Source of the DNA: Spirochaetaceae bacterium
GTDB lineage: Bacteria; Spirochaetota; Spirochaetia; DSM-2461
Length of the DNA stretch: 24,164 nucleotides
Direction of reading: 5' to 3'
Assembly (NCBI GenBank): GCA_027858495.1
Contig: JAQICO010000151.1
Span: 1-24,164, forward strand
The first letter of the stretch is position 1, and each line of letters begins with the position of its first letter. Of the stretch, positions 267 to 15,904 are shown piece by piece. Both the position numbers and the translations under genes were made by a program. The notes beneath the pieces are model-generated. The model was not told the DNA's origin and did not search any database. It was given only the letters and a program-made list of their open reading frames with translations.

Positions 267-1554
267 CTGCCTTTTCTACTCATCTGAAAATCGATCCCCA
301 TATTCTAGTTGGAATCGGTTCATTGCAGGTTTCCAGTCTCTTAACGGCATAGTCCATTTTTTTGACGCTTGCTGTATGGCTAAGTATATAATTTTAAAGG
401 CCGATCTGTCATTAGGAAATATTCTGCGATTTTTTATAGCTTTCCGGATAACACTATTTAGAGATTCAATAGCATTGGTGGTATAAATGATCTTTCTTAT
501 CTCAAAGGGATAATCAAATATGGTGATTAGATTTTCCCAATGTTTATTCCACATTTTGCTGATGGCTTCATATTGGCTATCCCATTTTTTAGAGAAGTTC
601 TCCAGCTCTCGTTCTGCTTCATCCTGGGTGATAGAGGAGTAGATCGCCTTTAAGTCTCTAGCAGCCTCTTTACGATGTTTGTACGATACATATTTAAGAG
701 AATTACGTACCATATGCACAATACACAGCTGTACTTTAGTTTTAGGGAAAACGGTATTTATTGCTTCTGGAAATCCGGTAAGCCCATCAACGCAGGCTAT
801 GAAAACATCCTTAACACCCCGATTTTGAAGTTCTGTTAGATCAGACAACCAGAATTTGGCCCCTTCATTTTCAGAGATCCAAAGTCCCAGAAGTTCTTTA
901 ATTCCTTCTGTCGTAATGCCTAAGGCAAGATATACAGATTTTTTGATGACTCTTTTATCCTGGTGTACCTTAACGACAATGCAATCCAGATATATGATGG
1001 GATAAAGACTTTCAAGAGGTCGGTTTTGCCAGCGTTCAACTTCTTCTAGAACAGAATCTGTCACCTGCGAAATCAAACTATGAGAAACATCGACTCCTTA
1101 CATTTCATGAAGAGTATCCGCAATGTCTCTTGTGGTTTGACCTTTTGCATAGAGCGTCAGGATTTTTTGATCAAAGCCAAGTAATCTTCTTTGACCCTTT
1201 TTTATGAGTTGGGGTTCAAAATTCGAATCTCGATCTCTGGGTGTTTCAATTTCCAATTCTCCAGAATCCGTTTTGATTTTCTTGGAATTGTAGCCATTGC
1301 GACTATTCTTTTTATTCCGGCCTTCGCTGGAATGTTTTTCATAACCAAGGTGGTTATTCATTTCCGCATCCAAAGCTTTCTGAATGGTAAGCTTCATTAA
1401 CTGCCCCAAGGGACCTCCCAGATCGGCCTCCGTCTTAACTCCCTTGGCAAGTTCCTCTGCCAATTCTTCTAATCGATCTTTGTCTAACATAATACTGCTC
1501 ATTCTAACTCCTTTGCCCGATATGGGCTATTTAGAATTAAGCAGTTACACAGTT
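259..1554 (-). mobile_element. IS256-family insertion sequence, ~1.3 kb, with imperfect terminal inverted repeats.
   Basis: Left end 259-270 'ctgtgtaactgc' and the reverse complement of the right end 1541-1552 'gcagttacacag' match 12/12. A partial match ('ttcta') extends to ~24 bp. The element is ~1296 bp and holds a single Transposase_mut-type ORF. An 8-bp target-site duplication is not evident: flanks are 'aatttttc' versus 'tttaattt'. Confidence 0.75.
276..1502 (-). pseudogene. IS256-family (Mutator-like, DDE) transposase, ~408 codons, interrupted by one in-frame TAA at 1098-1100 (minus strand).
   Basis: The two track ORFs (1098..1502 and 276..1076) are in the same frame. The read-through translation '...KILTLYAKGQTTRDIADTLHEM[*]GVDVSHSLISQVTDSVLEEVERWQNRPLESLYPIIYLDCIVVKV...' matches the IS256 consensus '...LYAKGMSTRDI...EEIYG-EVSP-LIS...WQNRPLE...'. 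The stop replaces the conserved Tyr, consistent with a TAY to TAA change. The downstream 'M' of the second ORF is really an internal TTG Leu codon. The DDE-region motif 'CIVHMVRNSLKYV' is present. Confidence 0.8.
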
Positions 1555-2931: not shown

Positions 2932-3546
2932 ATGGGAAAGCGTAATGAAAAAAAGGAAGAGATAAAAAATAGAATACTTCAGGGAGCCGGTGAGGTTTTT
3001 GAAGTAATGGGTTTTGAAGATGCCACCATGCAGGAGATTGCCAGGAAAGCTGAGGTTGGCCTTGGAACCGCTTATAACTATTTCAAATCCAAGGAAGAGC
3101 TGTATATGCTTACTTTGGCAGATAAAATGAATCAGACCACTGGCGCTCCCATTGACGTTGAGGACAATTCACTTTCTGGTGCAGATATGGTTTGTCAGCA
3201 GATAATTAAACAGCTAAATACCCTGAAGCATATCCCCAAAAGCGTCTGGAAAACAGTTTTTGGTATATCCTTTAACTCTATGAAAAGGGATAAGTCTTTG
3301 CTGAAAAAAATTATGATGGCCGATTATCAGGCCATGGATAAAATTGCCCAATTGATTGATCTGTTAAATAAGAAAGGAAGTCTACAAGTCCAGGAAGACC
3401 CTAAAGTAATATCAGAAATCATTTACGGCTCTCTTTTTTTAGATATCATGATGTTTGTTTTTGAAGAGGAAAGAACCTTTCAGGAAACCTGTGATGCCAT
3501 ATGTAAAAAAATTCACTTTATTTTAGGGGAAAAACTTGATTTCTAA
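2932..3546 (+). CDS. TetR/AcrR-family transcriptional regulator (204 aa).
   Basis: The N-terminal HTH 'AGEVFEVMGFEDATMQEIARKAEVGLGTAYNYFKSKEELY' is a classic TetR_N signature. RBS is 'agggagattacATG'. A palindromic operator lies immediately upstream. Confidence 0.85.
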   Translation: MGKRNEKKEEIKNRILQGAGEVFEVMGFEDATMQEIARKAEVGLGTAYNYFKSKEELYMLTLADKMNQTTGAPIDVEDNSLSGADMVCQQIIKQLNTLKHIPKSVWKTVFGISFNSMKRDKSLLKKIMMADYQAMDKIAQLIDLLNKKGSLQVQEDPKVISEIIYGSLFLDIMMFVFEEERTFQETCDAICKKIHFILGEKLDF

Positions 3547-3566
3547 GAAAGGGTGTATTATTATAT

Positions 3567-3592
3567 TATTGTACTGTAGCACTAGTACAATA
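3567..3592 (+). promoter_or_regulatory. 26-bp palindrome TATTGTACT-N8-AGTACAATA in the 5' UTR of the GntR/YtrA gene; candidate GntR-type operator.
   Basis: The 9-bp arms are perfect inverted repeats with a GT...AC core, as expected for GntR-family operators. They sit directly before the RBS 'ggag' (3593-3596) and the ATG at 3603. A 'tattatt' direct repeat lies just upstream. Confidence 0.45.
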
Positions 3593-3602
3593 GGAGCTTT
3601 GA

Positions 3603-3989
3603 ATGGAAGAGCTTAAAAAACTGGAATTTCGTTTGGATCCCAAAGGGGGAGTTCCTTTCTACAAGCAGATTATTCTTCAAGTTGAGATGGCCATTGCAGA
3701 CGGTCGCTTGATTTCTGGAGAGCAGCTTCCTACTGTCCGGGGTCTGGCGGTGGATTTAAAGATTAATCCTAATACTGTTGCCAGGGCATATAACGAAATG
3801 GAGATTCGAGGAATCGTCAACACTCAACAGGGAACAGGAACCTTTATCAGCGATAGAGAAATTTCCATGACCGATGTGGAGCGTGAGAAAATCCTTACGG
3901 AATTGGTCCGTTCCTTTGTGGCACAGGCTGCTTCCTACGGTTTAACCCAGCAGGATCTATTGGAGTATTTACAGGAGGTTAAGTTATGA
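3603..3989 (+). CDS. GntR-family transcriptional regulator, short YtrA-like subfamily (128 aa).
   Basis: wHTH 'YKQIILQVEMAIADGRLISGEQLPTVRGLAVDLKINPNTVARAYNEMEIRGIVNTQQGTGTFIS' is typical of GntR N-termini. The short C-terminal region is characteristic of YtrA-type regulators, which usually govern adjacent ABC-transporter operons. Confidence 0.85.
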   Translation: MEELKKLEFRLDPKGGVPFYKQIILQVEMAIADGRLISGEQLPTVRGLAVDLKINPNTVARAYNEMEIRGIVNTQQGTGTFISDREISMTDVEREKILTELVRSFVAQAASYGLTQQDLLEYLQEVKL

Positions 3990-4014: not shown

Positions 4015-5127
4015 ATGAATAGTTTACTGTTAAAAAAATTCGATAAAATAAAAAATATACAGGATAAGGCTATTCCTAAGGATTTTTCCTTCAACGGATT
4101 CTCCTGGATGGTTTTAATGGTTTTCTTAAGCGGAGGAATTTTCCTTCAATGGCTTTTAGGTCTCTTTCCAGAAACCCTGGAACTGATTGAAATCTGCGGT
4201 GCCTTTGTAGGTGCAGCTCTGCTTTTATCCCTGCTTGGCCAATGGACCGTTTTGCTGGTTGCATTAATGGTCCTATGGGGCGGCATTTATTATCAGCAGG
4301 GGCTTCAGTCTCCCTGGCTATTGATAACAGCCTCCATGGGACTCATTCTTGCCGCGTCCTTTCAGCTGGTTTACCAATGGGACAAGGTGGTGGTTTTGCG
4401 GATGGGCAAATTTAAAAAGGTCCATGGCCCGGGGCTTTTTTTAATGCTGCCGTTGTTGGACCGAATCGCTTCATTCATCGATACCCGTATACGCGCCACA
4501 GATTTTTCTGCGGAAAAATCCCTAACCATGGATACTGTACCGGTTCATGTGGATGCCCTGTGTTTCTGGATGATCTGGGATGCCCAGAAGGCTATTCTGG
4601 AGGTGGAAAATTATATAGAAGCGGTAACCCTATCTGCACAAACAGCTCTTAGAGACAGTATCGGCCATCATGATTTACATACCCTGCTTTCCGATCGAAG
4701 GGAATTAAGCCTGGAAATCCAGAAGGTTCTTGATGGAAAGACCAATTCCTGGGGTATTAGTATTTTATCGGTGGAATTTACGGAAATCATCATACCTCAG
4801 GAATTGGAGGATGCCATGAGTAAACAGGCTCAGGCGGAACGGGAGAGGAAATCCCGGGTCATATTAAGTCAGGCAGAGGTTGAAGTGGCCCGGGAATTTA
4901 AGAAGGCTGCGGATATCTATAGAGACGATCCCACGGCCCTGCAAATACGTTCCATGAACATGGTCTACGATGGATTAAAGCAAAAGAAGGGTTCTTTAAT
5001 GGTTTTACCTTCTTCGGCATTGGATCAGATGAATTTGGGTACCGTAATGGGAATGCAAGCCCAAAAAGAGATTAAAGAGATGGAAGAAAAGATAAGGGAA
5101 ACAGAGATAGAAGGAGGCAATAAATGA
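4015..5127 (+). CDS. SPFH/Band-7 (stomatin/prohibitin-like) membrane protein with an extended multi-TM N-terminus (370 aa).
   Basis: Residues ~30-120 hold 3-4 predicted TM helices (FSWMVLMVFLSGGIFLQWLLGLF, LIEICGAFVGAALLLSLLG, WTVLLVALMVLWGGIYY, WLLITASMGLILAASFQLVY). A Band_7 core follows ('VVVLRMGKFKKVHGPGLFLMLPLLDRIASFIDTRIRATDF...DALCFWMIWDAQKAILEVENYIEAVTLSAQTALRDSIGHHDLHTLLSDRRELSLEIQKVL...ILSVEFTEIIIPQELEDAMSKQAQAERERKSRVILSQAEVEVAREFKKAADIY'), ending in a coiled-coil E/K-rich tail. RBS is 'tagggggaacgtaaaATG'. Its stop overlaps the downstream ATPase start (ATGA). Confidence 0.8.
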   Translation: MNSLLLKKFDKIKNIQDKAIPKDFSFNGFSWMVLMVFLSGGIFLQWLLGLFPETLELIEICGAFVGAALLLSLLGQWTVLLVALMVLWGGIYYQQGLQSPWLLITASMGLILAASFQLVYQWDKVVVLRMGKFKKVHGPGLFLMLPLLDRIASFIDTRIRATDFSAEKSLTMDTVPVHVDALCFWMIWDAQKAILEVENYIEAVTLSAQTALRDSIGHHDLHTLLSDRRELSLEIQKVLDGKTNSWGISILSVEFTEIIIPQELEDAMSKQAQAERERKSRVILSQAEVEVAREFKKAADIYRDDPTALQIRSMNMVYDGLKQKKGSLMVLPSSALDQMNLGTVMGMQAQKEIKEMEEKIRETEIEGGNK

Positions 5128-5804
5128 TAGCCATTAATGATGTGAAACGAACCTATATCAGCGGTGATGTGAAGGTTCAAGCACTAAAAGGGGTTAACTT
5201 AACCATAGAAAAGGGAGATTTTATCTCCATTGCAGGGCCCTCGGGTTCCGGAAAAACCACATTGCTCAATCTGGTTGGCTGTATCGATAAAATCGACAGC
5301 GGAACCATCACCATTGATGATGTGGATGTGACCTCCATGAGTAAAGAAGAAAAGGCCTATTTTAGGAGAGACACCCTGGGATTTATCTTTCAGAGTTATA
5401 ATTTGATACCCGTTTTAACGTCATATGAAAATATTGCCTTTGCTCTAAATTTACTGGATGTGGATGACAAAGAAATTAAAGAACGCACCATGGAAATTCT
5501 CAAGGAAGTAGGACTGGAAGGCATGGAAGATCGCCGGCCCAACCGGCTTTCAGGAGGACAGCAGCAGCGAGTAGCCATTGCAAGAGCCTTGGTGAAACAG
5601 CCCAAGATTATTCTTGCCGACGAACCCACAGCCAATCTGGATTCCCATACCGGTGAAGAAATTCTAACACTGATGGAAGAAATGAACCAGAAACACAAAA
5701 CCACCTTTGTTTTTTCCACCCATGACAAAATGGTTATGGATTATGCCCACCGTTTAGTGGAATTACACGATGGAGTGATTAAGAGCGATATAAGACGCAA
5801 GTAA
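5124..5804 (+). CDS. ABC transporter ATP-binding protein, MacB/LolD/FtsE-type (226 aa).
   Basis: Walker A 'GPSGSGKTTLLNLVG', signature 'LSGGQQQRVAIARAL' and Walker B 'ILADEPTANLD' are present, plus the H-loop 'FSTHD'. RBS is 'gaaggagg'. A 4-bp ATGA overlap with the SPFH gene indicates translational coupling. Confidence 0.9.
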   Translation: MIAINDVKRTYISGDVKVQALKGVNLTIEKGDFISIAGPSGSGKTTLLNLVGCIDKIDSGTITIDDVDVTSMSKEEKAYFRRDTLGFIFQSYNLIPVLTSYENIAFALNLLDVDDKEIKERTMEILKEVGLEGMEDRRPNRLSGGQQQRVAIARALVKQPKIILADEPTANLDSHTGEEILTLMEEMNQKHKTTFVFSTHDKMVMDYAHRLVELHDGVIKSDIRRK

Positions 5805-5816
5805 AAGGAGGGCGCC

Positions 5817-7070
5817 ATGAAAGGATTGGTTTCCCTGGGATTAAAAAATATTCTGCGGTATAAACGCAGAACCATTATAACTGCCCTTGCCATCGGCATG
5901 GGTTTGATGATGTTCATATTAACCGATTCCATGCTGAAGGGTCTCAGCCTGGATTCTGAATTAAGTATTATAAAATACGAGGTTGGAGCGGGACGAATAG
6001 TCACTTCGGAGTATGCCGAGGACTTTGAGGATATGCCGTTAAAAGAAACCCTGGATCCTTCGGTGATGGCTAAGTTAGAGCAAGGTGATTTTATTTGGGC
6101 GCCCCGAATAGAATTTACCGCTGAGATGGTTTTTCGTAAAGATCCCTATCCTGTCTCGGGCCATATCAATGTCCGGGTAACCGCAGTGGATCCCCAACGG
6201 GATATACAGGTCTTTGATTTAGAGAATTTCCTCATTGAGGGAAGATATCCCTTTCCTCAGGAAGAGGGTGTTGTTCTGGGAAGCTGGCTGGCGGAAGATA
6301 TGGGAATTCACTTGGGCTACCCCGTAGATTTGAGTATTCAAACACGCTTTGGAGGCCAGGAGTTGATGGAACTGACGGTGGTTGGAATTGTGGAGAGTCC
6401 CGATTCCATGATCAATCGTGGCTTGGTAATGGTTCCATTAAAAGTAGCTCAGGATTATCTGGAGATGGATGGTCAGGTAACTCAAATCGCGGTGAAGGCT
6501 CCCATGTGGCGTTCTTTGGAGAATGGAGACCTACGGAGGCTGAAGGATTTACTTCAGGGGACAAATGGAGAATTCTATCCCTGGGAATTCTGGTCTCAGG
6601 ATTTTCTTTCCATAGCCGAGGGAAAACAAACCTCTGCCTCCACCATTCTTTTTCTTGTATTTATCATTGCTGCGGTGGGAATCTCCAACACCGTGTTAAT
6701 GAGTATTTTCGAACGGGTTCGAGAGCTGGGGATGATGCGGGCCTTAGGTCTGACCGAAAGGGATGTCCGGCTGCTCTTTTTAATAGAATCCGGAGCCATC
6801 GGTTTACTTGGATCCATCCTGGGTGTGATCATGGGCATTTTAGTTACCTGGGGAATGGTTACAAAGGGTATCGATTATTCCAGCTATACCGATATATTGC
6901 GGGAGCAGAATATGGGATACCGAATGGCCAGCGTGTTTTATGGTGTTTGGGTGCCCCAAACCATGATATTGGCGGCGGTGTTTGGCGTGGTTTTATGTGT
7001 TGTCATCGCCTGGTTTTCCACAAAAAAGATTAATCGTCTGGAGATAACCCAGTGTCTGAGGTTCCAGTGA
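5817..7070 (+). CDS. ABC transporter permease, FtsX/MacB/LolC-E family, with a large periplasmic domain (417 aa); permease 1.
   Basis: N-terminal TM 'LKNILRYKRRTIITALAIGMGLMMFILTDSMLKG', then a ~220-aa extracytoplasmic domain. A C-terminal 3-TM FtsX module follows ('ILFLVFIIAAVGISNTVLMSIFERVRELGMMRALGLTERDVRLLFLIESGAIGLLGSILGVIMGIL'). RBS is 'aaggaggg'. Confidence 0.85.
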   Translation: MKGLVSLGLKNILRYKRRTIITALAIGMGLMMFILTDSMLKGLSLDSELSIIKYEVGAGRIVTSEYAEDFEDMPLKETLDPSVMAKLEQGDFIWAPRIEFTAEMVFRKDPYPVSGHINVRVTAVDPQRDIQVFDLENFLIEGRYPFPQEEGVVLGSWLAEDMGIHLGYPVDLSIQTRFGGQELMELTVVGIVESPDSMINRGLVMVPLKVAQDYLEMDGQVTQIAVKAPMWRSLENGDLRRLKDLLQGTNGEFYPWEFWSQDFLSIAEGKQTSASTILFLVFIIAAVGISNTVLMSIFERVRELGMMRALGLTERDVRLLFLIESGAIGLLGSILGVIMGILVTWGMVTKGIDYSSYTDILREQNMGYRMASVFYGVWVPQTMILAAVFGVVLCVVIAWFSTKKINRLEITQCLRFQ

Positions 7071-7128: not shown

Positions 7129-8382
7129 ATGAAACTGGCTCAAATTGCATTAAGAAATATCAGCCGTAATCGGCGTCGAAGCATTTTGTCTGGTTCCGCT
7201 ATTTCCGTGGCCACCATGAGTATTGTGTTGCTCTTTTCTTTAATGGCGGGAATGACCGTGGATTTAAAAGACAATATGCAGACCTATAGAACCGGTGCTA
7301 TCCGGCTTAGGAACCGGGATTTTGGGAAATATGAAAGACTGAATCCAACACACTTAGTGGTTAGAAACGGTCAAGCCATCATGAATATTCTGGAAGAGCA
7401 GGAAGAGATATCCAGCCTGTCTCCCAGAATCAATTTTATGGGAGCCTATACCTGGGATGATAAATTAAAAAATGTCATGGGTGTCGCCGTGGATTTCCAG
7501 CGGGAAGAGGGCTTTCAGAATATTTCAGAGGTTTTGGTTGCCGGCCGGCTTCCCACTCCTGGAACTTCTGAAGCACTGGTTGGTGTTAAAATGGCCCAGA
7601 AACTAGGGGTTAATTTTGAAGACGATTTAGAGGATAAAATAACCATCGTCACCACCACGGCTCAAAGAAGAAAGAAACTTTTCACCATAGAGATTGTGGG
7701 TATTGCCGGATTTCCCATGTCTGCCTTAAACGATGCCATGGTTTTAATACCCCTTGATAGGGCCCAAGACCTGCTGCGCATGCCCGATGCCTATTCTGAA
7801 ATCCTGATAAAGGTGGACGAAGATGTGGTTGACGTAGATCTGTACACGCCTCAATTGGCAGAACTGCTCCCTCTGGAAACCGAAAGAGAAGAAGATTCCC
7901 TGGAATTGAAAAGCTGGAAAGAAGACAATACCATCTGGGGTATGATGAGCATGGCTCAGGCCATGTATATGATCTTTGCCTTTTTCTTCTTCGTGCTGGG
8001 CAGCTCGGTAATCATCAATACCACCATGATGGTAATTTTTGAACGCATGCGTGAAATCGGTACCCTTGCAGCCATGGGGATGAGAGGTCGAGAGTTAACT
8101 AAATTATTCTTCTTAGAAGCCTTTTTTATATCCTTCTTCGGGGCCTTGGCGGGATTGATTGTGGGCATGATAATTACCCAGATTTTTCATGTCTTCGGAT
8201 TGAATCTGGGAGCCATGATGGAGGGCATCGACTTTGATATTTCCACCATTATCTACCCTCAGCTGGATCTCTTTTATACCGCCTTTACCTTTGTCTTTGC
8301 CGTGCTGGTGGCATCGTTGGCAACCTTTATACCCTCAATAAGAGCTTCAAGAATCGAACCGGTAGACGCGTTGAGGGCATAG
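7129..8382 (+). CDS. ABC transporter permease, FtsX/MacB-like (417 aa); permease 2, divergent paralog.
   Basis: Topology matches permease 1: N-TM 'IALRNISRNRRRSILSGSAISVATMSIVLLFSLMAG', a periplasmic domain, and a C-terminal module 'MYMIFAFFFFVLGSSVIINTTMMVIFERMREIGTLAAMGMRGRELTKLFFLEAFFISFFGALAGLIVGMII'. RBS is 'taggaggg'. Confidence 0.8.
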   Translation: MKLAQIALRNISRNRRRSILSGSAISVATMSIVLLFSLMAGMTVDLKDNMQTYRTGAIRLRNRDFGKYERLNPTHLVVRNGQAIMNILEEQEEISSLSPRINFMGAYTWDDKLKNVMGVAVDFQREEGFQNISEVLVAGRLPTPGTSEALVGVKMAQKLGVNFEDDLEDKITIVTTTAQRRKKLFTIEIVGIAGFPMSALNDAMVLIPLDRAQDLLRMPDAYSEILIKVDEDVVDVDLYTPQLAELLPLETEREEDSLELKSWKEDNTIWGMMSMAQAMYMIFAFFFFVLGSSVIINTTMMVIFERMREIGTLAAMGMRGRELTKLFFLEAFFISFFGALAGLIVGMIITQIFHVFGLNLGAMMEGIDFDISTIIYPQLDLFYTAFTFVFAVLVASLATFIPSIRASRIEPVDALRA

Positions 8383-8408: not shown

Positions 8409-9134
8409 ATGAAAAATTGGATAATTGTAAGCATGATATTTGCATTGACCACAGGGCTTTGGGCCATCACCGGTGATGAAATTATAGAACGTTCCGATGC
8501 CCAGCAGCGGTTTGATACAATGAAAAGTACTGGAATAATGAGAGCTGATGACCGTTTTGGTACCATTGAAAGTACCTTCATTTCACATAGCAGAGGAGAC
8601 AATGAGTTTTTGCTGGAGTTCACCAATATCGAAGAACAGGGTCAAAAGGTTTTACGGGTGGACGGAGATATCTACCTTTACGATCCCGATGCCGAAGAAA
8701 CCCTCAGAATGAGCGGTTCCTCCTTAAAGGATTCCATGTTCGGAGACATCTCCTATGAAGATGTCTCCGAGGGAAATGATACACTGAGTAAATATGATGC
8801 AGCGTTATTAAAGGAAGAAGCCATAAACGGAGTGAACTGTTACCTGGTGGAATTGACTGCCAAAACCCGCAGCGTGCCCTATCATCGTCAGCTCCTATGG
8901 ATCAGAGTGGACAATTTAGTACTGCTGCGTGGAGAATATTATTCCCGCCGGGGAACGCTGCTCAAGGAAATCCGTGTCTTGGAAACCATGGAGATCGGCG
9001 GTAAAGTGGTGTTGTCCCACTTGATTCTTGAAGATAAGGTTCGTGAGGATTCCTCTACCGAATTGATCATGAATAATATTGAGGTGAACATTGAATTGGA
9101 CGACCGTATGTTCACCGAGGAAGCGTTATTCTAA
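8409..9134 (+). CDS. LolA-like periplasmic protein (outer-membrane lipoprotein-sorting protein family, Pfam LolA_like type), 241 aa with signal peptide.
   Basis: Signal peptide 'MKNWIIVSMIFALTTGLWA'. The mature region is a beta-rich fold with the family-typical 'MSGSSLKDSMFGDISYEDV' (GSDFSYEDL-like) motif, plus 'CYLVELTAK' and 'YYSRRGTLLKE' segments. Strong RBS 'aggaggaaaaaATG'. It is embedded between FtsX permease genes, a typical neighbourhood for this family. Confidence 0.6.
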   Translation: MKNWIIVSMIFALTTGLWAITGDEIIERSDAQQRFDTMKSTGIMRADDRFGTIESTFISHSRGDNEFLLEFTNIEEQGQKVLRVDGDIYLYDPDAEETLRMSGSSLKDSMFGDISYEDVSEGNDTLSKYDAALLKEEAINGVNCYLVELTAKTRSVPYHRQLLWIRVDNLVLLRGEYYSRRGTLLKEIRVLETMEIGGKVVLSHLILEDKVREDSSTELIMNNIEVNIELDDRMFTEEALF

Positions 9135-10378
9135 TGAAATCCAAGTATATATTTACATTGGCCATAAAAAATTTAACCCGCCATAAGCGCAGGACCTTTA
9201 TTACTGTGTTGGTACTGGCCATCGGTATAGCAACCTTTATTCTTCTGGACTCCATGCTTATTGGAGCCCGGAGGGCTTCAGAGATAAATCTGATCCGCCA
9301 TGAGATGGGATCGGCCAAGTTAGTAACACCGGAATATTGGGACGAGTGGAGGGATTTCCCCTTGAAATCCTCCGTGGAGAATCCCCGGGATATAATCCAG
9401 GCCCTGGATGATGCGGGAATTACAGCAGTCCCCCGGATACAGATAAATACCACCATGGTAATCAATTCAGGAATTGGAGGTTCCCTGCCCTCCCTGCTGA
9501 TTGGAATGGATATGCAGCAGGATTCCAAGGTTTTTGATACCCAGGGAGCCCTGAGCAGCGGACGGCTGCCCCAACCGGGTGAGGAAGCCTTGTTAATGGG
9601 ATCATGGATGGCAACAGATCTGAAATTGGAACTGGGTGATATTGTCTTTTTTCAAGTGGTTGACCGTCAGGGAGGCAATGAGGTCCTGGAAGCAGAGATT
9701 GTGGGGCTACTGGATACTCCCGACCCCATGGTAAACCGTATGGGGGTATATATTCCCCTGGATACCCTGGACTATTATCTATTCATGGAAGAAAGTGTAA
9801 CGGAAATTGCCCTATCCTTTCCCATGGGACCGGGAAAACGATCCGCAAGAAAAAACGCTGAGAACATAGCCAAGGATTTCGGCTTGGAGCTTCATACTTG
9901 GCAGGATTGGTCACAGGATTATCTCGCTGCTTCTGAGGGTGACAAATACGGATCTTTCATTATTCTCGTGTTGGTGTTTATTATTGCGGCAGTGGGTTTT
10001 TCCAATACACTGCTGATGGCATTGCTGGAACGGGTACCGGAAACTGGAATGATGCGGGCCCTGGGAACCACACAGGCCCAGTTGAGACGGTTGTTTTTAA
10101 CAGAATCTCTAATGCAGGGCCTGGCAGGATCTCTATTTGGAATATTCCTTGGTGTTTTATTTAATATCCCGGTGGTACTAAAGGGAATCGATTACAGCAG
10201 TATAATGCGAGATATGAGTGTGGGCTATCGCTTTACGGGAATAATTTACGGAGTCTGGGCTTCCAGCAGCTATATTATCTCTATGTTAAGCGGGGTGTCC
10301 ATTGCACTTGCCGTGTCCTGGTTCAGCATTAAAAAAGCTCTCAAATTGAAGATAACCGATTCCATTCGGGGGAATTAG
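9134..10378 (+). CDS. ABC transporter permease, FtsX/MacB-like (414 aa); permease 3, close paralog of permease 1.
   Basis: Aligns with permease 1 along its whole length. Examples: 'IKNLTRHKRRTFITVLVLAIGIATFILLDSML' vs 'LKNILRYKRRTIITALAIGMGLMMFILTDSML', and 'LVLVFIIAAVGFSNTLLMALLERVPETGMMRALG' vs 'LFLVFIIAAVGISNTVLMSIFERVRELGMMRALG'. Its start overlaps the LolA-like stop (TAATG). Confidence 0.85.
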   Translation: MKSKYIFTLAIKNLTRHKRRTFITVLVLAIGIATFILLDSMLIGARRASEINLIRHEMGSAKLVTPEYWDEWRDFPLKSSVENPRDIIQALDDAGITAVPRIQINTTMVINSGIGGSLPSLLIGMDMQQDSKVFDTQGALSSGRLPQPGEEALLMGSWMATDLKLELGDIVFFQVVDRQGGNEVLEAEIVGLLDTPDPMVNRMGVYIPLDTLDYYLFMEESVTEIALSFPMGPGKRSARKNAENIAKDFGLELHTWQDWSQDYLAASEGDKYGSFIILVLVFIIAAVGFSNTLLMALLERVPETGMMRALGTTQAQLRRLFLTESLMQGLAGSLFGIFLGVLFNIPVVLKGIDYSSIMRDMSVGYRFTGIIYGVWASSSYIISMLSGVSIALAVSWFSIKKALKLKITDSIRGN

Positions 10379-10440: not shown

Positions 10441-11649
10441 ATGAAAAAAAATATAATCATCATCTTTGTACTGGGTTTATTGACTTCCCTGGCCGCAGAG
10501 ACCAGTCTGAGTCTGGATATGCGTTTTATGCAGTCCCTCTATCGCGGTGCGGATAATAAATTATACAGTCAACCTGCAGGTACGGTGGAAATGACCATGC
10601 GATCTGCAGGAAACAGCGATGTTAAGGCCGATCTAATGATCGATTACATACCCATGAATGCCCCGCCAGGCGGAATGGCGCTGCCCCTTTTTGATCTTAA
10701 AAAAGCCTCGGTAAAGCTTCGTTTCCCCGGTCTTAGAATAACCATGGGTAAAACCCGGGTAGGCTGGGGTGAAGGGTCGGTTTTTAATTCCGGCGCTGTG
10801 CTTTTTGGAAGTCTCTCTCCCCTGGTTGACCTGACCCAGGATGAAGCCCGAACTGATACAGCCTGGCTGACCTTGCTTCGCTGGAGTCCCTCGGGAGATT
10901 TCTGGGTGGAGGGGATTTATATGCCTCCCACTCCCTCCTGGGATATTTCCATTGATAATGATGCCGACGATGTTACCCCGGAATATTTTTCCTTAAATAA
11001 CAGTGTTCCCGATGTCTACAGCAGTTCTGCCGGCTTGCGGATGGTGGGTGAATTGGGAGACCTGATTGTGGAAACCGGATATCTTGCCAAGGGAGAGTTA
11101 AAGGCCCTGGGTGATGTCACTGGTCATCGGCCCTATATTACCCTTCATGGAGAAATGTATTTTGATCTTTATGGCTCGGCATCCATGGCCATACCCTGGC
11201 AGGATTTTGACTGGGATACAGATCGAGGGTCCTTTAATATCAGCGCAGGTCTGTTCCGTCAGTTTCAACTATGGTATGACGGTACATTGTCCGCACGGAT
11301 GGAATTTTTGGTCTTTCCCTATCAAAAATGGGAGGAACAGGATTTCAGGCTAAATCCTCTGGCAAATGAGACCTACAGTCTTTATTTATACCCCGAGTTT
11401 AATTTAGCCATAGGACGAAATTTAAATATCCCCCTAATGGCCATGATTTCACCGCTGGATCAATCTGCCCAGATAACCGCGGGATTCTCCTGGAAGGTAT
11501 ATCAGGGATTCAGCTTCTTGGGTTACGGAATCTTTTCTGTAGGCCAATCGAAAGATGTTTTCGCCTGGGACAGACTATCCTCCGATCTTATGGTGGGCGA
11601 TGTAATAAATGGCTGGTCCGTAATGACTGGGCTTAGGTATACCTTCTAA
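10441..11649 (+). CDS. Predicted outer-membrane beta-barrel protein (402 aa) with signal peptide and C-terminal beta-signal.
   Basis: Signal peptide 'MKKNIIIIFVLGLLTSLAAE'. Amphipathic alternating-hydrophobic strands run throughout. The C-terminus '...WSVMTGLRYTF' has the OMP beta-signal pattern: terminal Phe and hydrophobic residues at -3 and -5. RBS is 'agaggag'. No family assignment possible by eye. Confidence 0.55.
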   Translation: MKKNIIIIFVLGLLTSLAAETSLSLDMRFMQSLYRGADNKLYSQPAGTVEMTMRSAGNSDVKADLMIDYIPMNAPPGGMALPLFDLKKASVKLRFPGLRITMGKTRVGWGEGSVFNSGAVLFGSLSPLVDLTQDEARTDTAWLTLLRWSPSGDFWVEGIYMPPTPSWDISIDNDADDVTPEYFSLNNSVPDVYSSSAGLRMVGELGDLIVETGYLAKGELKALGDVTGHRPYITLHGEMYFDLYGSASMAIPWQDFDWDTDRGSFNISAGLFRQFQLWYDGTLSARMEFLVFPYQKWEEQDFRLNPLANETYSLYLYPEFNLAIGRNLNIPLMAMISPLDQSAQITAGFSWKVYQGFSFLGYGIFSVGQSKDVFAWDRLSSDLMVGDVINGWSVMTGLRYTF

Positions 11650-11722
11650 TAAACTGGGATTGTGGGAATATTTAATAATCTCTAAACAGCTTTTGTCATG
11701 GTGTGTTATGATTATGCCTAAT

Positions 11723-12805
11723 ATGAAATTTTTTATATCGATTATTAGCCTATTATTATTTACCCAATGTCTCAGTTATGATGGACCGGAGATGGATTTA
11801 TCCAATGATCCCTTTTATTTGGGAGCAGACCTGTCATCGGTAAATGAAATGGAAGATCAAAATATTGTTTTTACCAGGGGAGATCAAACCATTGATCCCT
11901 ACGAATTTTTTTCCCATTGGGGCATGAATCTTGTAAGACTTCGCCTTTGGCATAGCCCTACTTGGACGGAGTACTTTACCTTGCCTGATGTCAAAAAAAG
12001 TATATCCAGGGCCAGGGAGCAGGGAATGACCGTTCTCTTGGATTTCCATTATTCCGATACTTGGGCTGATCCGGGAAGTCAAATCCCCCCTGCCAGCTGG
12101 CAGGGATCCTCCGATGAAGAGATGGCGGAGCAGTTGTATTTGTACACCTATGAAACCTTGGAGGCTCTGAACCAACAAGATTTACTTCCAGAAATGGTGC
12201 AGCTTGGTAATGAGATAAATCAGGGAATATTAAAATCACAAAGTGATATAGATTGGCCCAGACAATCCTTGTTATTCAATGCTGCCATTGCTGCTGTTCA
12301 TGAGATGGAGCAGACCAGTGGGAAATCCATTGAAATTATGCTGCATATAGCTGGGCCGGAGAATGCCCAATGGTGGTTTGATAAAGCCATAGAGGCAGGC
12401 ATTCAAGACTTCGACCTCATTGGGTTATCCTACTATCCCACGTGGAGTACCCTCGGGCTAAAGCAATGCGGTTCAATGCTGAGTTTTTTGGCTCAGCGAT
12501 ACCAGCGTCAAGTGATGATTGTTGAAACTGGATATCCATGGACATCGGAGGATTCCATAGATACAGCGGATAATATCCTTAATAAAGGGTTGCGCCGCTA
12601 TGGAATTTCCAAAGACGGACAGAGGCAATTCTTTGATGATTTGGTAGATATTGCCAGGGAGTCAGGAGCAATCGGCGTCGTTTACTGGGAGCCCGCATGG
12701 GTGTCCACCGATTCCCCCAGTCCCTGGGGAGTTGGTTCCCATTGGGAAAATATAACCTGGTTTGACTTTGAGAATCGATTACACCAATCATGGGAAACTC
12801 CATGA
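11723..12805 (+). CDS. Glycoside hydrolase family 53 endo-beta-1,4-galactanase, secreted or lipoprotein (361 aa from the ATG at 11723).
   Basis: Shows the GH53 hallmarks 'DFHYSDTWADPGSQ', acid/base motif 'VQLGNEINQG' and nucleophile motif 'MIVETGYPW'. The N-terminal signal is 'MKFFISIISLLLFTQC'. The track ORF begins at a TTG at 11660 and ATGs also occur at 11708 and 11714, so the exact start is uncertain. Confidence 0.75.
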   Translation: MKFFISIISLLLFTQCLSYDGPEMDLSNDPFYLGADLSSVNEMEDQNIVFTRGDQTIDPYEFFSHWGMNLVRLRLWHSPTWTEYFTLPDVKKSISRAREQGMTVLLDFHYSDTWADPGSQIPPASWQGSSDEEMAEQLYLYTYETLEALNQQDLLPEMVQLGNEINQGILKSQSDIDWPRQSLLFNAAIAAVHEMEQTSGKSIEIMLHIAGPENAQWWFDKAIEAGIQDFDLIGLSYYPTWSTLGLKQCGSMLSFLAQRYQRQVMIVETGYPWTSEDSIDTADNILNKGLRRYGISKDGQRQFFDDLVDIARESGAIGVVYWEPAWVSTDSPSPWGVGSHWENITWFDFENRLHQSWETP

Positions 12806-14316
12806 CAGATCTTAAGGATTTTCTTCAATCTCATAGGCTTTTCACTCATCTTAACAGTAAACAGTTAAAATCCTTGGTACAGCATTGCAGGGTATTACAA
12901 TGCCCTATGGACTCCACTTTGTTTTATCCCAGAGAAAGAATCGATTCTCTTCTATTGGTGAGGGACGGATGTCTTTCCTTGGGAAAACAGAGGGCCTTTG
13001 GGGGCAACAGCCTGTTTATAAGCTCTCTGGCCCTTCCAATAGAAATGGATGAACCATTGATTGCCGCAGAAGAAAGTCGGATTATCATTCTAAAAAGAAA
13101 TGCCTTTCTTCGTTGGATTCGTGCCAATAGAGGAGCATTAAGACGTTTGGGTGCACATACTTTTGGCCAAAAAGAATGGGGATTCCCCTGGATTTTTTGG
13201 AAGGAATACGGTGCATTGCTGCCCCTGGGGCGAAAAGTGAAGAACCAGAAGGCCCTTTTGGTTCTCCGACGATGGTGGCCCCTATGGCTGGTTCGGCAGC
13301 TTCCATTTGTGGGTATAGCAGGGTTCTCCCTGTTCTTTCCTGTGGTTTGGTGGCTCGCCATACCTGCAGGACTGGCATTCCTCTTTTCTTTGCTTCTAAG
13401 ACATTCCAACGGGCTTTTTATAACACCTGCCTCGGTAATTGTCAGGATTTTTAAACTTAGAGGACTCCATCGTCAGGTGATGAAGATACCCCTTGAGCAA
13501 ATAAAGGCTCTGGAAATTCAGCGCCGTGGGATAATACCCTCCATATTAAGGGTGGGTAGTCTGGCCATGAAAACCAGTTCCTTACAGGGCTCCTTTGTGG
13601 TCCCTCAGATCAGAAAACCAGAAAGGGCAGAGCAGCTGCTAAACTCTTTAAGAGAACAAAGGGGTGGAGCGAAACCCGACAGATTAACCCGACTAAAAGA
13701 AGCATGGCAACGTAGAAAGTCCGATAATAATCACCCTAAAGAACTTTTCCAAGGATCGCTCTATAATCCTACTGTAAAAACCCAAGAGGTAATCCGTTTT
13801 AAGAAATCTCCCTTTGTATTATTTAAACATATATTTATACCATTATTGATATGGTTACTTCCGCTGAGCGCCTTGGTTTTCCAATTTTTTCCCGAGCCTT
13901 GGAATATTCCTCTTCTCCTTTTATCTCTTCCTCCTTTAGGATTGCTGCTCTATCGATGGGAGGATTGGCGAAATGATATTTTTAAGGTGGCCGGTGATTC
14001 TGTTTTTGACGTAGATAAAAAGCCCCTGGGTAAAGAGATGACCCGCCGCCAAACCCAGTTGGTTCAAATAGAAAATATCACCGCACGTCAGAAGGGTTTT
14101 GCTTCCTGGCTGTTCAATGCAGGGTCTGTTCGAATTATCTTACCGGGAGAAACCGGAGAATTTGAGTTTGAGGATGTAAAAGATCCTTGGTTTGTACAGG
14201 ATGAACTATTAAGGCTGCGCACAGAGGCTTTGGAAAAACAAAAAATGAGCCAACAGGATGAACGTTTTCAAGAGCTTTTGGATTTGGCTGATCTTTTGGC
14301 TCAAGAGCTTCGATAA
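12802..14316 (+). CDS. Membrane protein with an N-terminal cNMP-binding-like domain followed by two TM-hairpin + bPH_2 (YdbT/YdbS-like bacterial PH) modules (504 aa).
   Basis: Start taken at the ATGA overlap with the GH53 stop at 12802-12805 (the track start at 12790 is also possible). Residues ~10-110 resemble a degenerate cNMP-binding fold ('LFTHLNSKQLKSLVQHCRVLQCPMDSTLFYPRERIDSLLLVRDGCLSLG...FGGNSLF'). The first TM pair is 'LLVLRRWWPLWLVRQLPFVGIAGFSLFFPVVWWLAIPAGLAFLFSLLL'. bPH-like 1 is 'ITPASVIVRIFKLRGLHRQVMKIPLEQIKALEIQRRGIIPSILRVGSLAMKT'. The second TM pair is 'IFIPLLIWLLPLSALVF...LLLLSLPPLGLLLY'. bPH-like 2 is 'IFKVAGDSVFDVDKKPLGKEMTRRQTQLVQIENITARQKGFASWLFNAGSVRIIL'. A coiled-coil C-tail follows. 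Confidence 0.55.
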   Translation: MTDLKDFLQSHRLFTHLNSKQLKSLVQHCRVLQCPMDSTLFYPRERIDSLLLVRDGCLSLGKQRAFGGNSLFISSLALPIEMDEPLIAAEESRIIILKRNAFLRWIRANRGALRRLGAHTFGQKEWGFPWIFWKEYGALLPLGRKVKNQKALLVLRRWWPLWLVRQLPFVGIAGFSLFFPVVWWLAIPAGLAFLFSLLLRHSNGLFITPASVIVRIFKLRGLHRQVMKIPLEQIKALEIQRRGIIPSILRVGSLAMKTSSLQGSFVVPQIRKPERAEQLLNSLREQRGGAKPDRLTRLKEAWQRRKSDNNHPKELFQGSLYNPTVKTQEVIRFKKSPFVLFKHIFIPLLIWLLPLSALVFQFFPEPWNIPLLLLSLPPLGLLLYRWEDWRNDIFKVAGDSVFDVDKKPLGKEMTRRQTQLVQIENITARQKGFASWLFNAGSVRIILPGETGEFEFEDVKDPWFVQDELLRLRTEALEKQKMSQQDERFQELLDLADLLAQELR

Positions 14317-14335
14317 TTTTCCCGATTCTAAAAAT

Positions 14336-15904
14336 ATGAGATACCAATGGCTTTGTCTATTATTTATATTCCTTTTGAGTTTTGGGCTCCATGCCCAAGA
14401 GGCCTATTATAGAGCTGTAGGCTACGATGCCTTCCATCGTATTGAGGGTCAATTTCCTCTGGATGCCACTGACAGTGAGGATCTAAACTGTTATCGTTTT
14501 ACCTATGACGAATTAGAAGAGCCTGTACGTATTGAGTACCTAAATCGCGGCAGAGCTCTGGCAGATCCTTTTTTTAAAGTTCCCGTTGTAGAAATTGAGT
14601 ATTCAGAAGGTTTTATCCACAGAATATATAAGGATTCTCAGGGCAAACCGGCTCCCGACGAACAAGGTGTATACTCACAACGGTTAAAATTAAACACACA
14701 GGGATTCGCTCAATCTCTCTTTAACTATGACCGCTTGGGTAATCTACGCAGTGACAATATGGGAGTAGCAGCCTATTACTGGAATCTTGATAAGAACGGT
14801 TTATCCGTTGAGGCGTTATTTCTTAACAGTTATGGAGAGCCCGTGCAAAATCGAGAAGGTATATCTTTAATAAGATATGACTATGATGAAGCTTTCAGAA
14901 TGAAGGAACTTCGCTATCTAAACCCTCAGGGAGAACCCATAACCAGTAATGAAACGGCCATCGCTGGAATGACTTTCAGTTATAATGATCAGGGATTGAA
15001 GGAAGAGCAAACTTTTTTGGATGAACAAGGAAACCTTGCCAGCAATATAGAAAATATATCAAAAATCCGCTGGGCCTACGACGAACAGGGCTCTATGCTT
15101 CTGCAGGAGCATTATGATGATCAGGATAATCTAACCACCGATGTGCACCATGTGGCAGTATACTTTTGGGGTTATGACTCAAGGGGTAATAGAATCCTTC
15201 AGGAGCATTACAATACCCTGGGAGAGCCCACTGAGGATGATGCCGGAGTTTTCCGTTATAGATGGATTTATTACGAACAGGGCAATGAACTTGAAAAAAT
15301 CAATGAAAATCTAGATGGTTCTCTTACCCTAGATGATTGGGGGCTTGCATCCTACCGATGGACCTTTGATGAACGTGGTCAAATCACCGAAGCCAAGTAT
15401 TACGGAATAGACGACAGCCTGAAAGAAGACAATTGGGGCGTTGCCATTTATCAATGGGATTATGACGATAGTGGAAATATGGTTGAATCCAGGTCTTTTT
15501 CTGATTGGGAAACCCTGCAGGATGATTCCAGAGGTGTTGCTGTTTACCGTTGGGCCTATGATGATCGGGGAAACCGTATAATGGAAAATCATTATGACAG
15601 CCGAGAGATTCAGGTAGAAGACAGCGATGGAATTGCTTCTATCGGCTGGAGTTACGATGATGAGAATAATATGAATAAGCAGGAACAGTTTGGACTATAC
15701 GGACAATATAGAGCCGATAATAAGGGTGTGGCCATATATCATTGGGATCATGACCGTTTTGGGAATATCATCGAAGAGACTTACCTCGGAATCGATGAAC
15801 AGAACGTAGAGAATGTTTCAGGTATTGCCTTGGCCAGATGGTCCTATGACAACCTTGGAAATAGATTAAGAGTTGCCAGATTTGATCGAAAAAGTATTCC
15901 CTGA
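14336..15904 (+). CDS. Secreted tandem-repeat protein with ~14 YD-like (Rhs/YD-repeat-related) 33-aa repeats (522 aa from the ATG at 14336).
   Basis: Signal peptide 'MRYQWLCLLFIFLLSFGLHAQ' (the track start at 14258 would add a second hydrophobic stretch). The repeated unit is 'G-[VI]-A-x-Y-x-W-x-YD-x-x-GN-x-[IL]-x-E-x-[YH]-(x8-10)-D-x-x-G'. Examples: 'VAVYFWGYDSRGNRILQEHY', 'VAIYQWDYDDSGNMVESRSF', 'VAVYRWAYDDRGNRIMENHY', 'VAIYHWDHDRFGNIIEETYL', 'IALARWSYDNLGNRLRVARF'. There is no C-terminal toxin or other domain. Confidence 0.55.
   Translation: MRYQWLCLLFIFLLSFGLHAQEAYYRAVGYDAFHRIEGQFPLDATDSEDLNCYRFTYDELEEPVRIEYLNRGRALADPFFKVPVVEIEYSEGFIHRIYKDSQGKPAPDEQGVYSQRLKLNTQGFAQSLFNYDRLGNLRSDNMGVAAYYWNLDKNGLSVEALFLNSYGEPVQNREGISLIRYDYDEAFRMKELRYLNPQGEPITSNETAIAGMTFSYNDQGLKEEQTFLDEQGNLASNIENISKIRWAYDEQGSMLLQEHYDDQDNLTTDVHHVAVYFWGYDSRGNRILQEHYNTLGEPTEDDAGVFRYRWIYYEQGNELEKINENLDGSLTLDDWGLASYRWTFDERGQITEAKYYGIDDSLKEDNWGVAIYQWDYDDSGNMVESRSFSDWETLQDDSRGVAVYRWAYDDRGNRIMENHYDSREIQVEDSDGIASIGWSYDDENNMNKQEQFGLYGQYRADNKGVAIYHWDHDRFGNIIEETYLGIDEQNVENVSGIALARWSYDNLGNRLRVARFDRKSIP

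Follow-up and report, generated by a model that had tools for sequence, protein, structure and literature searches.

Stomatins and slipins are abundant in bacteria, yet to our knowledge almost no clients or regulators have been defined for them besides the HflK/HflC complex with FtsH and the pairing with NfeD. The SPFH domain of stomatin faces the cytoplasm, and Chiba et al. in 2006 reportedly placed QmcA in a cytoplasmic orientation as well. Human stomatin forms a 16-subunit cage about 12 nm wide, closed by a beta-barrel made of the C-terminal strand and conserved prolines, and on its own it makes a curvature-resistant microdomain (PMC12344292). In prokaryotes, the typical operon partner of stomatins is NfeD (Hinderhofer 2009, PMC2636767). 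Here we analysed an SPFH (Band_7) gene within a stretch of 24,164 nucleotides from a Spirochaetaceae bacterium (GenBank assembly GCA_027858495.1, contig JAQICO010000151.1, forward strand), referred to below as the window. We found that its product belongs to a large slipin clade with an expanded membrane anchor and previously undescribed fixed partners. A gene for a small GntR regulator lies directly upstream, and the genes of an ATP-binding cassette (ABC) exporter follow. The best explanation of the whole, which we regard as evenly balanced between right and wrong, is that a cytoplasm-facing slipin ring is encoded in a GntR-headed operon and has been joined to an exporter in Spirochaetota. 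The features that bear on this are the following.

3536 to 3564, + strand: promoter-like TTGATT-17-TATTAT just upstream of the operator (consensus scan, a pattern match only)
3570 to 3589, no strand assigned: palindromic operator TGTACTgtagcacTAGTACA, consensus TGTACTA-N6-TAGTACA, a presumed YtrA-type GntR site
3603 to 3989, + strand: small GntR regulator, YtrA subfamily, 128 residues (Pfam GntR, E = 2e-14)
4015 to 5127, + strand: SPFH gene, 370 residues, ATG start, stomatin/slipin type
4015 to 4095, + strand: predicted cytoplasmic N-terminal tail, residues 1-27, with the motif R/K11, K13, N14 ... D23-F24 ... S30
4096 to 4374, + strand: four transmembrane (TM) helices, residues 28-47, 54-74, 77-95 and 100-120 (AlphaFold2, hydropathy)
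4381 to 4893, + strand: Band_7/SPFH domain, residues 123-293, predicted cytoplasmic (Pfam, Foldseek, phmmer)
4798 to 5034, + strand: wall and cap helices (residues 262-323) and C-terminal strand motif GSLMVLPSSALDQMN (residues 326-340) (AlphaFold2, stomatin alignment, conservation)
5124 to 5127, + strand: four-nucleotide ATGA overlap between the SPFH stop and the ABC ATPase start, ...AAT AAA TGA / ATG ATA GCC...

The ATG of the SPFH gene is preceded by GGGGGA, and residues 1-3 of the product align with the N-termini of its homologues. Pfam Band_7 (PF01145) matches residues 123-293 (E = 1.9e-31, 109.9 bits against a cut-off of 23.6). When the protein was searched against the PDB with phmmer, it matched Pyrococcus horikoshii stomatin PH1511 (E = 6e-37), human stomatin (E = 4e-36, residues 113-332 on stomatin 45-264) and Escherichia coli QmcA (E = 2e-25), with HflC and HflK at just 1e-9 to 1e-7. 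Foldseek, where stomatin 16-mers were top-ranked and human stomatin and PH1511 were the best matches, agreed with this ranking; the structures it listed include a stomatin-client complex, that with aquaporin-1 (PDB 9zd2). By both methods its nearest relations are with stomatin, PH1511 and QmcA, and HflK/C, prohibitin and flotillin are more distant. It aligns with stomatin residues 45-264 end to end at 27-35% identity; the match begins where the membrane hairpin of stomatin ends, takes in the SPFH domain with both the wall and the cap helices, and reaches the 'STIVFP' strand, opposite which the window protein has 'SLMVLP'. Membership in HflK/HflC was rejected, given NCBIfam scores far under the equivalog cut-offs (67 bits against 159.4 for HflK, 45 against 134.4 for HflC), a single gene and a predicted cytoplasmic orientation. 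Pfam gave the protein no HlyD-family match, and it is not assigned to the membrane fusion proteins (MFPs) such as MacA, HlyD and DevB. No NfeD domain was found by Pfam among the 10 proteins of the window cluster, and the gene order at 80 spirochaete loci leaves no place for an NfeD gene. Since the domain, the similarity ranking, the anchor and the C-terminal elements all agree, we class the protein from its sequence as a slipin/stomatin-type protein with ring-forming elements, and not as an HflK/C homologue.

The earlier note on this DNA had counted three to four N-terminal helices. Hydropathy gave four peaks within a hydrophobic N-terminus of about 120 residues, and AlphaFold2, run with an alignment of 121 sequences, placed helices at 28-47, 54-74, 77-95 and 100-137, of which TM4 (100-120) abuts the SPFH domain. 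This is the most confident part of the model, with predicted local distance difference test (pLDDT) values of 90-98 in 10-residue blocks over residues 21-110. The predicted count is thus four, and the homologues and the model agree on a conserved four-helix bundle in place of the single hairpin of ordinary stomatins, as the note had supposed. Among the 121 sequences D23, S30 and W77 never vary, R11, K13 and N14 are conserved in 90% or more, and a related motif, RADFRFAPLN, is present in distant 4-TM relatives. In crude hydropathy counts of the nearest full-length representatives, 48 have two TM helices, 11 have one, 10 have four and nine have three. Having several TM helices in the anchor is therefore usual for the clade, and two helices are the commonest number among these representatives.

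The distribution of charge around the helices is strongly one-sided. Averaged over the 121 homologues, the N-terminal tail carries 6.05 lysine and arginine residues (net charge +3.9) and the 16 residues after TM4 carry 4.77 (net charge +3.6), whereas loop 1 has 0.10 (net charge -1.1), the turn between TM2 and TM3 has 0.02 and loop 3 has 0.00 (net charge -0.7). Because there are four TM helices with this positive-inside pattern, both the N-terminal tail and the SPFH domain are predicted to lie in the cytoplasm (N-in/C-in), an orientation that agrees with stomatin and QmcA.

The elements by which stomatin closes its cage also have counterparts here. AlphaFold2 models helices at 262-301 and 306-323 that correspond to wall and cap. 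Three residues near the C-terminal strand, P332, M339 and G342, do not vary across the 121-sequence alignment (A2), and conservation reaches 90% or more at S333, S334 and N340. Because the alignment with human stomatin reaches the C-terminal strand motif that closes the 16-mer cage, a cage-like oligomer is plausible, and by homology with the 16-mer the SPFH protein would form a homo-oligomeric ring. The earlier note had proposed such a cage on the model of HflK/C around FtsH, and the cage survives as a plausible structure.

The protein of the upstream gene has its GntR helix-turn-helix at residues 20-82 and consists of a winged helix-turn-helix and a short C-terminal helical tail, with no effector domain. 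Its best PDB matches are the small GntR proteins Lmo0741, 3by6 and Lin1836 (113-134 residues), and its NCBIfam matches, of Rv1152 type and PmtR type (the latter at E = 1e-16), are under the cut-off. Judged by this architecture and by the palindrome at its own promoter, it fits the YtrA subfamily. The palindromic operator, taken as the presumed GntR target, occurs once in the window of 24 kb (two mismatches or fewer). At the same tolerance the operator was found near the GntR start at 75 of 77 spirochaete loci and at 40 of 63 other loci, with four matches elsewhere in 1.3 Mb. At many other loci it lies between TTGACA and TACAAT, the latter formed by the right arm of the operator. An operator at the GntR promoter is a signature of an autorepressed operon, to which SPFH and, among spirochaetes, the exporter genes would also belong; GntR is expected to bind this DNA. 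Directly upstream of the operator the window carries a TetR-family gene (2932-3546, + strand), which none of the 80 related spirochaete loci has and which therefore appears to be a local addition. Just before it, at 2878-2915, we noted a nested palindrome, ATGAACCTATTC-AC-GAATGCATTC-AC-GAATAGGTTCAT, which is likely a TetR operator.

A homologue search gave thousands of matches, the best 120 of which are full-length (348-423 residues) at 55-71% identity, many of them bearing the annotation 'slipin family protein' in spirochaetes. Scanning a single genome from each species found 219 relatives. The best 80 of the 219, on which the spirochaete counts rest, are all Spirochaetota, including Oceanispirochaeta, Sphaerochaeta, Sediminispirochaeta, Marispirochaeta, Pleomorphochaeta and Thalassospirochaeta, and the open reading frames (ORFs) of their loci were annotated against the proteins of the window. 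More than 140 loci were inspected overall, and single loci are cited below by their L numbers. Wherever a spirochaete locus extends upstream of the SPFH gene (78 loci), the GntR gene is the one directly before it, and at 37 of them the two overlap by 4 nt. This small gene is the invariant neighbour of the SPFH gene, and the earlier note had missed it. The ABC transporter genes follow directly at 75 of the 77 loci with downstream DNA, so the linkage between SPFH gene and transporter that the note had expected in other genomes does recur. The order GntR-SPFH-ABC-FtsX-FtsX-LolA_like-(FtsX)-barrel is kept nearly everywhere the contig permits.

The junction between the SPFH and ATPase genes is tight. 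In the window the ATGA overlap of stop and start was confirmed at 5124-5127, and a Shine-Dalgarno sequence, GAAGGAGG, lies inside the 3' end of the SPFH gene. The gene after SPFH encodes the ATPase at 67 of the 77 loci, and 52 of these 67 junctions overlap (by 4 nt in 26, 8 nt in 10, 14 nt in nine and 17 nt in seven). At eight of the 77 an extra FtsX permease gene comes first and the ATPase second (L034, L037, L041, L043, L048, L051, L052 and L062, among them a Pleomorphochaeta sp., L052, and the Spirochaetae HGW metagenome-assembled genomes, L037 and L041). Because of this subgroup the SPFH-ATPase junction is not universal, and the linkage of the SPFH gene with the transporter is the broader relation. 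At L056 (7536-12035) the GntR-SPFH pair, of 4-TM type, is followed by an ABC_tran ATPase and two ABC2_membrane_3 permeases of ABC-2 type; since this is a different exporter, the GntR-SPFH module is not tied to a single class of ABC transporter.

Beyond the spirochaetes, it is the pair of GntR and SPFH genes that persists. With HMMER, 1.8 billion cluster representatives (50% clustering) were searched exhaustively, and 494 of them proved to be relatives at E <= 1e-30. Six distant unfused representatives each have a GntR gene of 124-154 codons immediately upstream; ABC genes follow in L084, L085 and L087 and not in L082, L083 or L086, and L087 combines a 2-TM SPFH protein of 44% identity with a full operon of ABC, FtsX, FtsX, PF17131 and a 410-residue protein. 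A metagenome scan seeded with 2-TM relatives added 80 soil and sediment loci; 69 of these include upstream DNA, and GntR adjoins SPFH in 68. Genomes of Eggerthellaceae and Coriobacteriaceae likewise have the GntR-SPFH pair without a transporter. We take the pair to be an old and widespread two-gene module. In the soil loci no third gene dominates after the pair; a small secreted protein was found in 11 of 51 and an SdpI/DUF1648-like protein in five of 51. The latter is a multi-TM ORF of about 215-240 residues that starts MSTRTTTIVVLIMIAA...HWNINDQVNGYMP (L127, L132, L133, L154 and L155) and was likened to DUF1648/SdpI by eye.

Several of these loci have other neighbours. L122 (4360-9253), with a 4-TM form, reads GntR-SPFH-PEMT-unknown 271-residue protein-HlyD (MFP)-ABC, the HlyD_D23 protein being encoded alongside the SPFH homologue. 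PEMT-like genes (phospholipid methyltransferase family) come soon after GntR-SPFH in two unrelated loci, L122 and L082; in L082 (6631-9023) YbjQ precedes PEMT, and a divergent cluster of YbhG-like MFP and ABC-2 genes is also present. Large HEAT-repeat proteins are encoded downstream of GntR-SPFH in L033 (8881-13407) and L097 (4110-6665), both without the ABC operon, and in the L097 protein an MFS/TLC-like transporter part is joined with HEAT repeats.

Downstream of the SPFH gene in the window are the components of the exporter and its envelope partners.

5124 to 5804, + strand: ABC ATPase of LolD/DevA/MacB nucleotide-binding domain (NBD) type, a separate polypeptide (Pfam ABC_tran)
5817 to 7070, + strand: FtsX-type permease 1 (Pfam MacB_PCD and FtsX; lolCE-type match under the cut-off)
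7129 to 8382, + strand: FtsX-type permease 2 (Pfam MacB_PCD and FtsX)
8409 to 9134, + strand: periplasmic LolA_like protein (PF17131, Pfam E = 1e-45), with a signal peptide and no lipobox Cys
9134 to 10378, + strand: FtsX-type permease 3 (Pfam FtsX/MacB_PCD), present in just a subset of related operons
10441 to 11649, + strand: outer-membrane beta-barrel, 402 residues, with a signal peptide, ending ...RYTF

The whole cluster therefore reads TetR, small GntR, SPFH, ABC ATPase, FtsX permease 1, permease 2, LolA_like, permease 3 and the 402-residue protein. The three permeases match FtsX and MacB_PCD and the ATPase matches ABC_tran, as in type VII ABC systems. The best NCBIfam matches of the ATPase are DarD, DevA, LolD and FtsE, all under the equivalog cut-offs, and the lolCE scores of 80-111 bits against a cut-off of 362 do not support LolCDE proper. 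The PDB relatives of the LolA_like protein (4z48, 3buu and 3bk5) are uncharacterised LolA-superfamily proteins. Pfam gave no match for the 402-residue protein; AlphaFold2 models it as a signal helix with about 20 strands (pLDDT 74), the best Foldseek matches are the porins OmpU, OmpF, OmpM1 and AlgE, and its gene is kept at the operon end in most loci. No HlyD/MFP gene was found in the window operon by Pfam and NCBIfam scans. By sequence, these genes would encode a type VII ABC exporter of the inner membrane, together with a soluble carrier for the periplasm and a barrel in the outer membrane, without an MFP. By analogy with Lol, the substrate is likely to be a lipid, lipoprotein or glycolipid.

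The third permease gene after the LolA-like gene is found in the window and in L002, L011, L047, L049, L074 and L080, most operons having two, and three permease genes to one ATPase are unusual for type VII ABC systems. A role in anti-phage defence was considered and rejected: PADLOC had no match for the SPFH, GntR, LolA-like and barrel proteins and just generic ones for the ATPase. Directly after the barrel gene (11660-15904, + strand) are three genes that are not conserved beside the operon in other genomes, encoding a GH53 protein (endo-beta-1,4-galactanase family), a 508-residue protein with a weak bPH_2 match and a 548-residue protein that shows traces of RHS repeats; between the second and third of these ORFs there is an overlap of about 59 nt. 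At the other end of the window (276-1502, - strand) a Mutator/IS256-family transposase is split into two ORFs, of which 1098-1502 covers profile positions 18-127 and 276-1076 covers positions 137-377, either as a frameshifted or decayed insertion sequence (IS) element or through a programmed frameshift.

Taken together, these data suggest how the system might work, a mechanism that we consider the most likely one by analogy with stomatin. The short stomatin anchor would have been expanded to four TM helices, with the N-terminal tail and the SPFH/coiled-coil part in the cytoplasm. A ring or cage, by homology with stomatin, PH1511 and QmcA, would assemble on the cytoplasmic face of the inner membrane, where the numerous TM helices of its subunits would enclose and set apart a patch of the bilayer. 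The YtrA-type GntR repressor is expected to bind TGTACTA-N6-TAGTACA at its own promoter, with SPFH as the second gene of the operon. In Spirochaetota the GntR and SPFH module appears to have been combined, under translational coupling, with the genes of a type VII ABC exporter resembling LolCDE/MacB, whose partners would be a LolA-like carrier in the periplasm and a barrel in the outer membrane. The ring, co-produced with the transporter, may organise or restrain it from the cytoplasmic or NBD side within a membrane microdomain, much as stomatin acts on channels and transporters in eukaryotes, and it may report the state of the membrane or of transport to a GntR protein that has no effector domain.

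A number of observations weigh against this explanation. An ABC ATPase gene lies next to SPFH in none of the 51 metagenome loci with more than 900 nt downstream, and nine metagenome loci have 4-TM forms without an adjacent ABC gene. Because of these loci, 4-TM forms included, the SPFH protein does not need the spirochaete transporter, and its extra helices are not specific to it. We had considered that the extra TM pair might be specific to transporter-linked forms, and rejected this on the nine soil relatives and on L087, where a 2-TM protein goes with the full operon. Even among spirochaetes, L033 and L040 keep GntR-SPFH with unrelated genes in place of the transporter. Co-transcription and overlapping codons speak for co-expression and not for binding, and a ring of about 16-26 subunits is not obviously supplied by 1:1 translational coupling. 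The topology is a prediction, and the AlphaFold2 monomer is poorly defined at residues 121-156 and 327-332, where low local pLDDT at 327-332 leaves the C-terminal strand unmodelled in the monomer.

The pattern of gene adjacency also invites a reading in which the regulator, rather than the transporter, is the partner of the ring, which we regard as a real though minority possibility. Here the SPFH ring would be a sensor and anti-repressor that responds to membrane state or substrate load and holds or releases GntR, perhaps through the N-terminal tail, with the exporter as one output; it can coexist with the preferred explanation of a ring joined to an exporter. Adjacency to GntR (78 of 78 spirochaete loci, 68 of 69 metagenome loci and all distant unfused loci looked up) is far commoner than adjacency to ABC genes (none of 51 in the metagenomes), GntR/SPFH overlaps are frequent, the GntR protein of 128 residues has no ligand-binding domain, and an even number of TM helices keeps the conserved basic N-terminal tail in the cytoplasm. 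An autoregulated operon would, however, explain the adjacency without any contact between the proteins. The sole direct hint of contact, a weak one, comes from fused GntR-2TM-SPFH ORFs in the Coriobacteriaceae contigs L081, L168 and L169 (proteins P0181 and P0287-P0289), which show three different junctions. The fusions make up just four clusters, each a singleton, against hundreds of orthologues that are not fused, and P0289 has frameshift scars. In the common arrangement, seen at the unfused locus in L169, the SPFH ATG lies about 97 nt inside the 3' end of the GntR gene in another frame, where a 1-nt indel would fuse the two. We had considered the fusion P0181 as Rosetta-stone proof of interaction and downgraded it to weak evidence on these grounds; the fused ORFs, with their heterogeneous junctions, may be strain variants or indel artefacts. 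A bolder combination, in which a stomatin-type cage serves as membrane-state sensor for the YtrA-type repressor via the N-terminal tail, as a widespread two-gene switch, and the spirochaete ring in addition encloses or gates the LolCDE-like exporter from the NBD side, seems to us rather unlikely.

It is quite unlikely, in our view, that the slipin is a generic co-regulated membrane-stress protein that stiffens or organises the membrane on derepression, with no specific contact to transporter or regulator. The varied downstream context outside the spirochaetes (PEMT, YbjQ, YhfC, SdpI-like, MFP-ABC, or nothing recurrent) would suit such a role, as would the microdomain that human stomatin forms alone (PMC12344292), but the tight SPFH-ATPase junction is conserved across 67 spirochaete species, and the SPFH gene stays at the head of the transporter operon despite the extra FtsX at eight loci and the changed transporter in L056. 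Extremely improbable, and rejected here, is the proposal of the earlier note that the SPFH domain replaces a MacA/DevB-type MFP as an HflK/C-like periplasmic cage linking to the LolA-like protein or the barrel: the operon has no MFP gene, SPFH comes first before the ATPase as macA does before macB, and HflK/C are existing periplasmic SPFH cages, but 'occupying the adaptor slot' was an interpretation and no observation, and the four confident TM helices, with basic N-terminal tail and basic residues after TM4, by prediction put the domain in the cytoplasm and so argue against any such bridge, as do the similarity to cytoplasm-facing stomatin, PH1511 and QmcA instead of HflK/C, the soluble LolA-like carrier, which already covers the periplasmic gap so that an adaptor is not needed, and L122, where the SPFH gene coexists with a true HlyD-type MFP.

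Our full-text literature searches found no paper linking SPFH proteins or stomatins with YtrA/GntR regulators or with FtsX-type ABC transporters, and a search on TP0789 gave nothing relevant. Neither GntR nor ABC transporters are mentioned in the 2009 survey of prokaryotic SPFH operons (PMC2636767) or in a 2026 survey of SPFH proteins in Pseudomonas. Two constant partners that can be tested come with the clade described here: the YtrA-type repressor, whose operator is defined, and, in Spirochaetota, a coupled type VII exporter. Two questions thereby become testable in cultivable Sphaerochaeta and Sediminispirochaeta, namely what a prokaryotic stomatin ring holds and how YtrA regulators without an effector domain sense. 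The locus also draws attention to an uncharacterised envelope export system, with a LolA-like family (PF17131) that newer Pfam names TP_0789-like after Treponema pallidum TP_0789.

Compared with known systems, the protein is most like stomatin and the slipins (human STOM, PH1511 and QmcA), with which it shares the Band_7 core, the wall and cap helices, the C-terminal strand with its conserved proline, a membrane anchor directly before the SPFH domain and, by prediction, a domain that faces the cytoplasm. Stomatin forms 16-mer rings and QmcA larger ones, and a ring is expected here by homology. The window protein differs in having four full TM helices and a conserved basic N-terminal tail, where stomatin has one TM helix or a half-inserted hairpin. 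No NfeD gene accompanies it; in place of one, a gene for a YtrA-type GntR is the constant neighbour, and the spirochaete SPFH genes show translational coupling with that of an ABC ATPase. The likeness to HflK/HflC-FtsH, the analogy of the earlier note, lies in an SPFH cage that would enclose a membrane-embedded, ATP-driven machine. HflK/C, however, is periplasmic, a heteromer of two paralogues and the partner of a protease, whereas the window has a single SPFH gene with a predicted cytoplasmic product.

The regulatory part recalls the ytrABCDEF and pmtR-pmtABCD operons, in which a small effector-less GntR protein also heads, and presumably autorepresses through a palindrome, an ABC exporter operon; YtrF of Bacillus subtilis is an FtsX-type permease. 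In those operons the transporter genes follow the regulator with no SPFH gene in between, whereas here the SPFH gene is invariant and the transporter optional. On the export side, the system resembles LolCDE, MacAB-TolC and DevBCA in its FtsX and MacB_PCD permeases, separate LolD/DevA-like ATPase, LolA-superfamily protein and outer-membrane component. Unlike these, it has no MFP, no TolC and up to three permease genes, its LolA_like protein is from the uncharacterised TP_0789-like family, and the system falls below all equivalog cut-offs.

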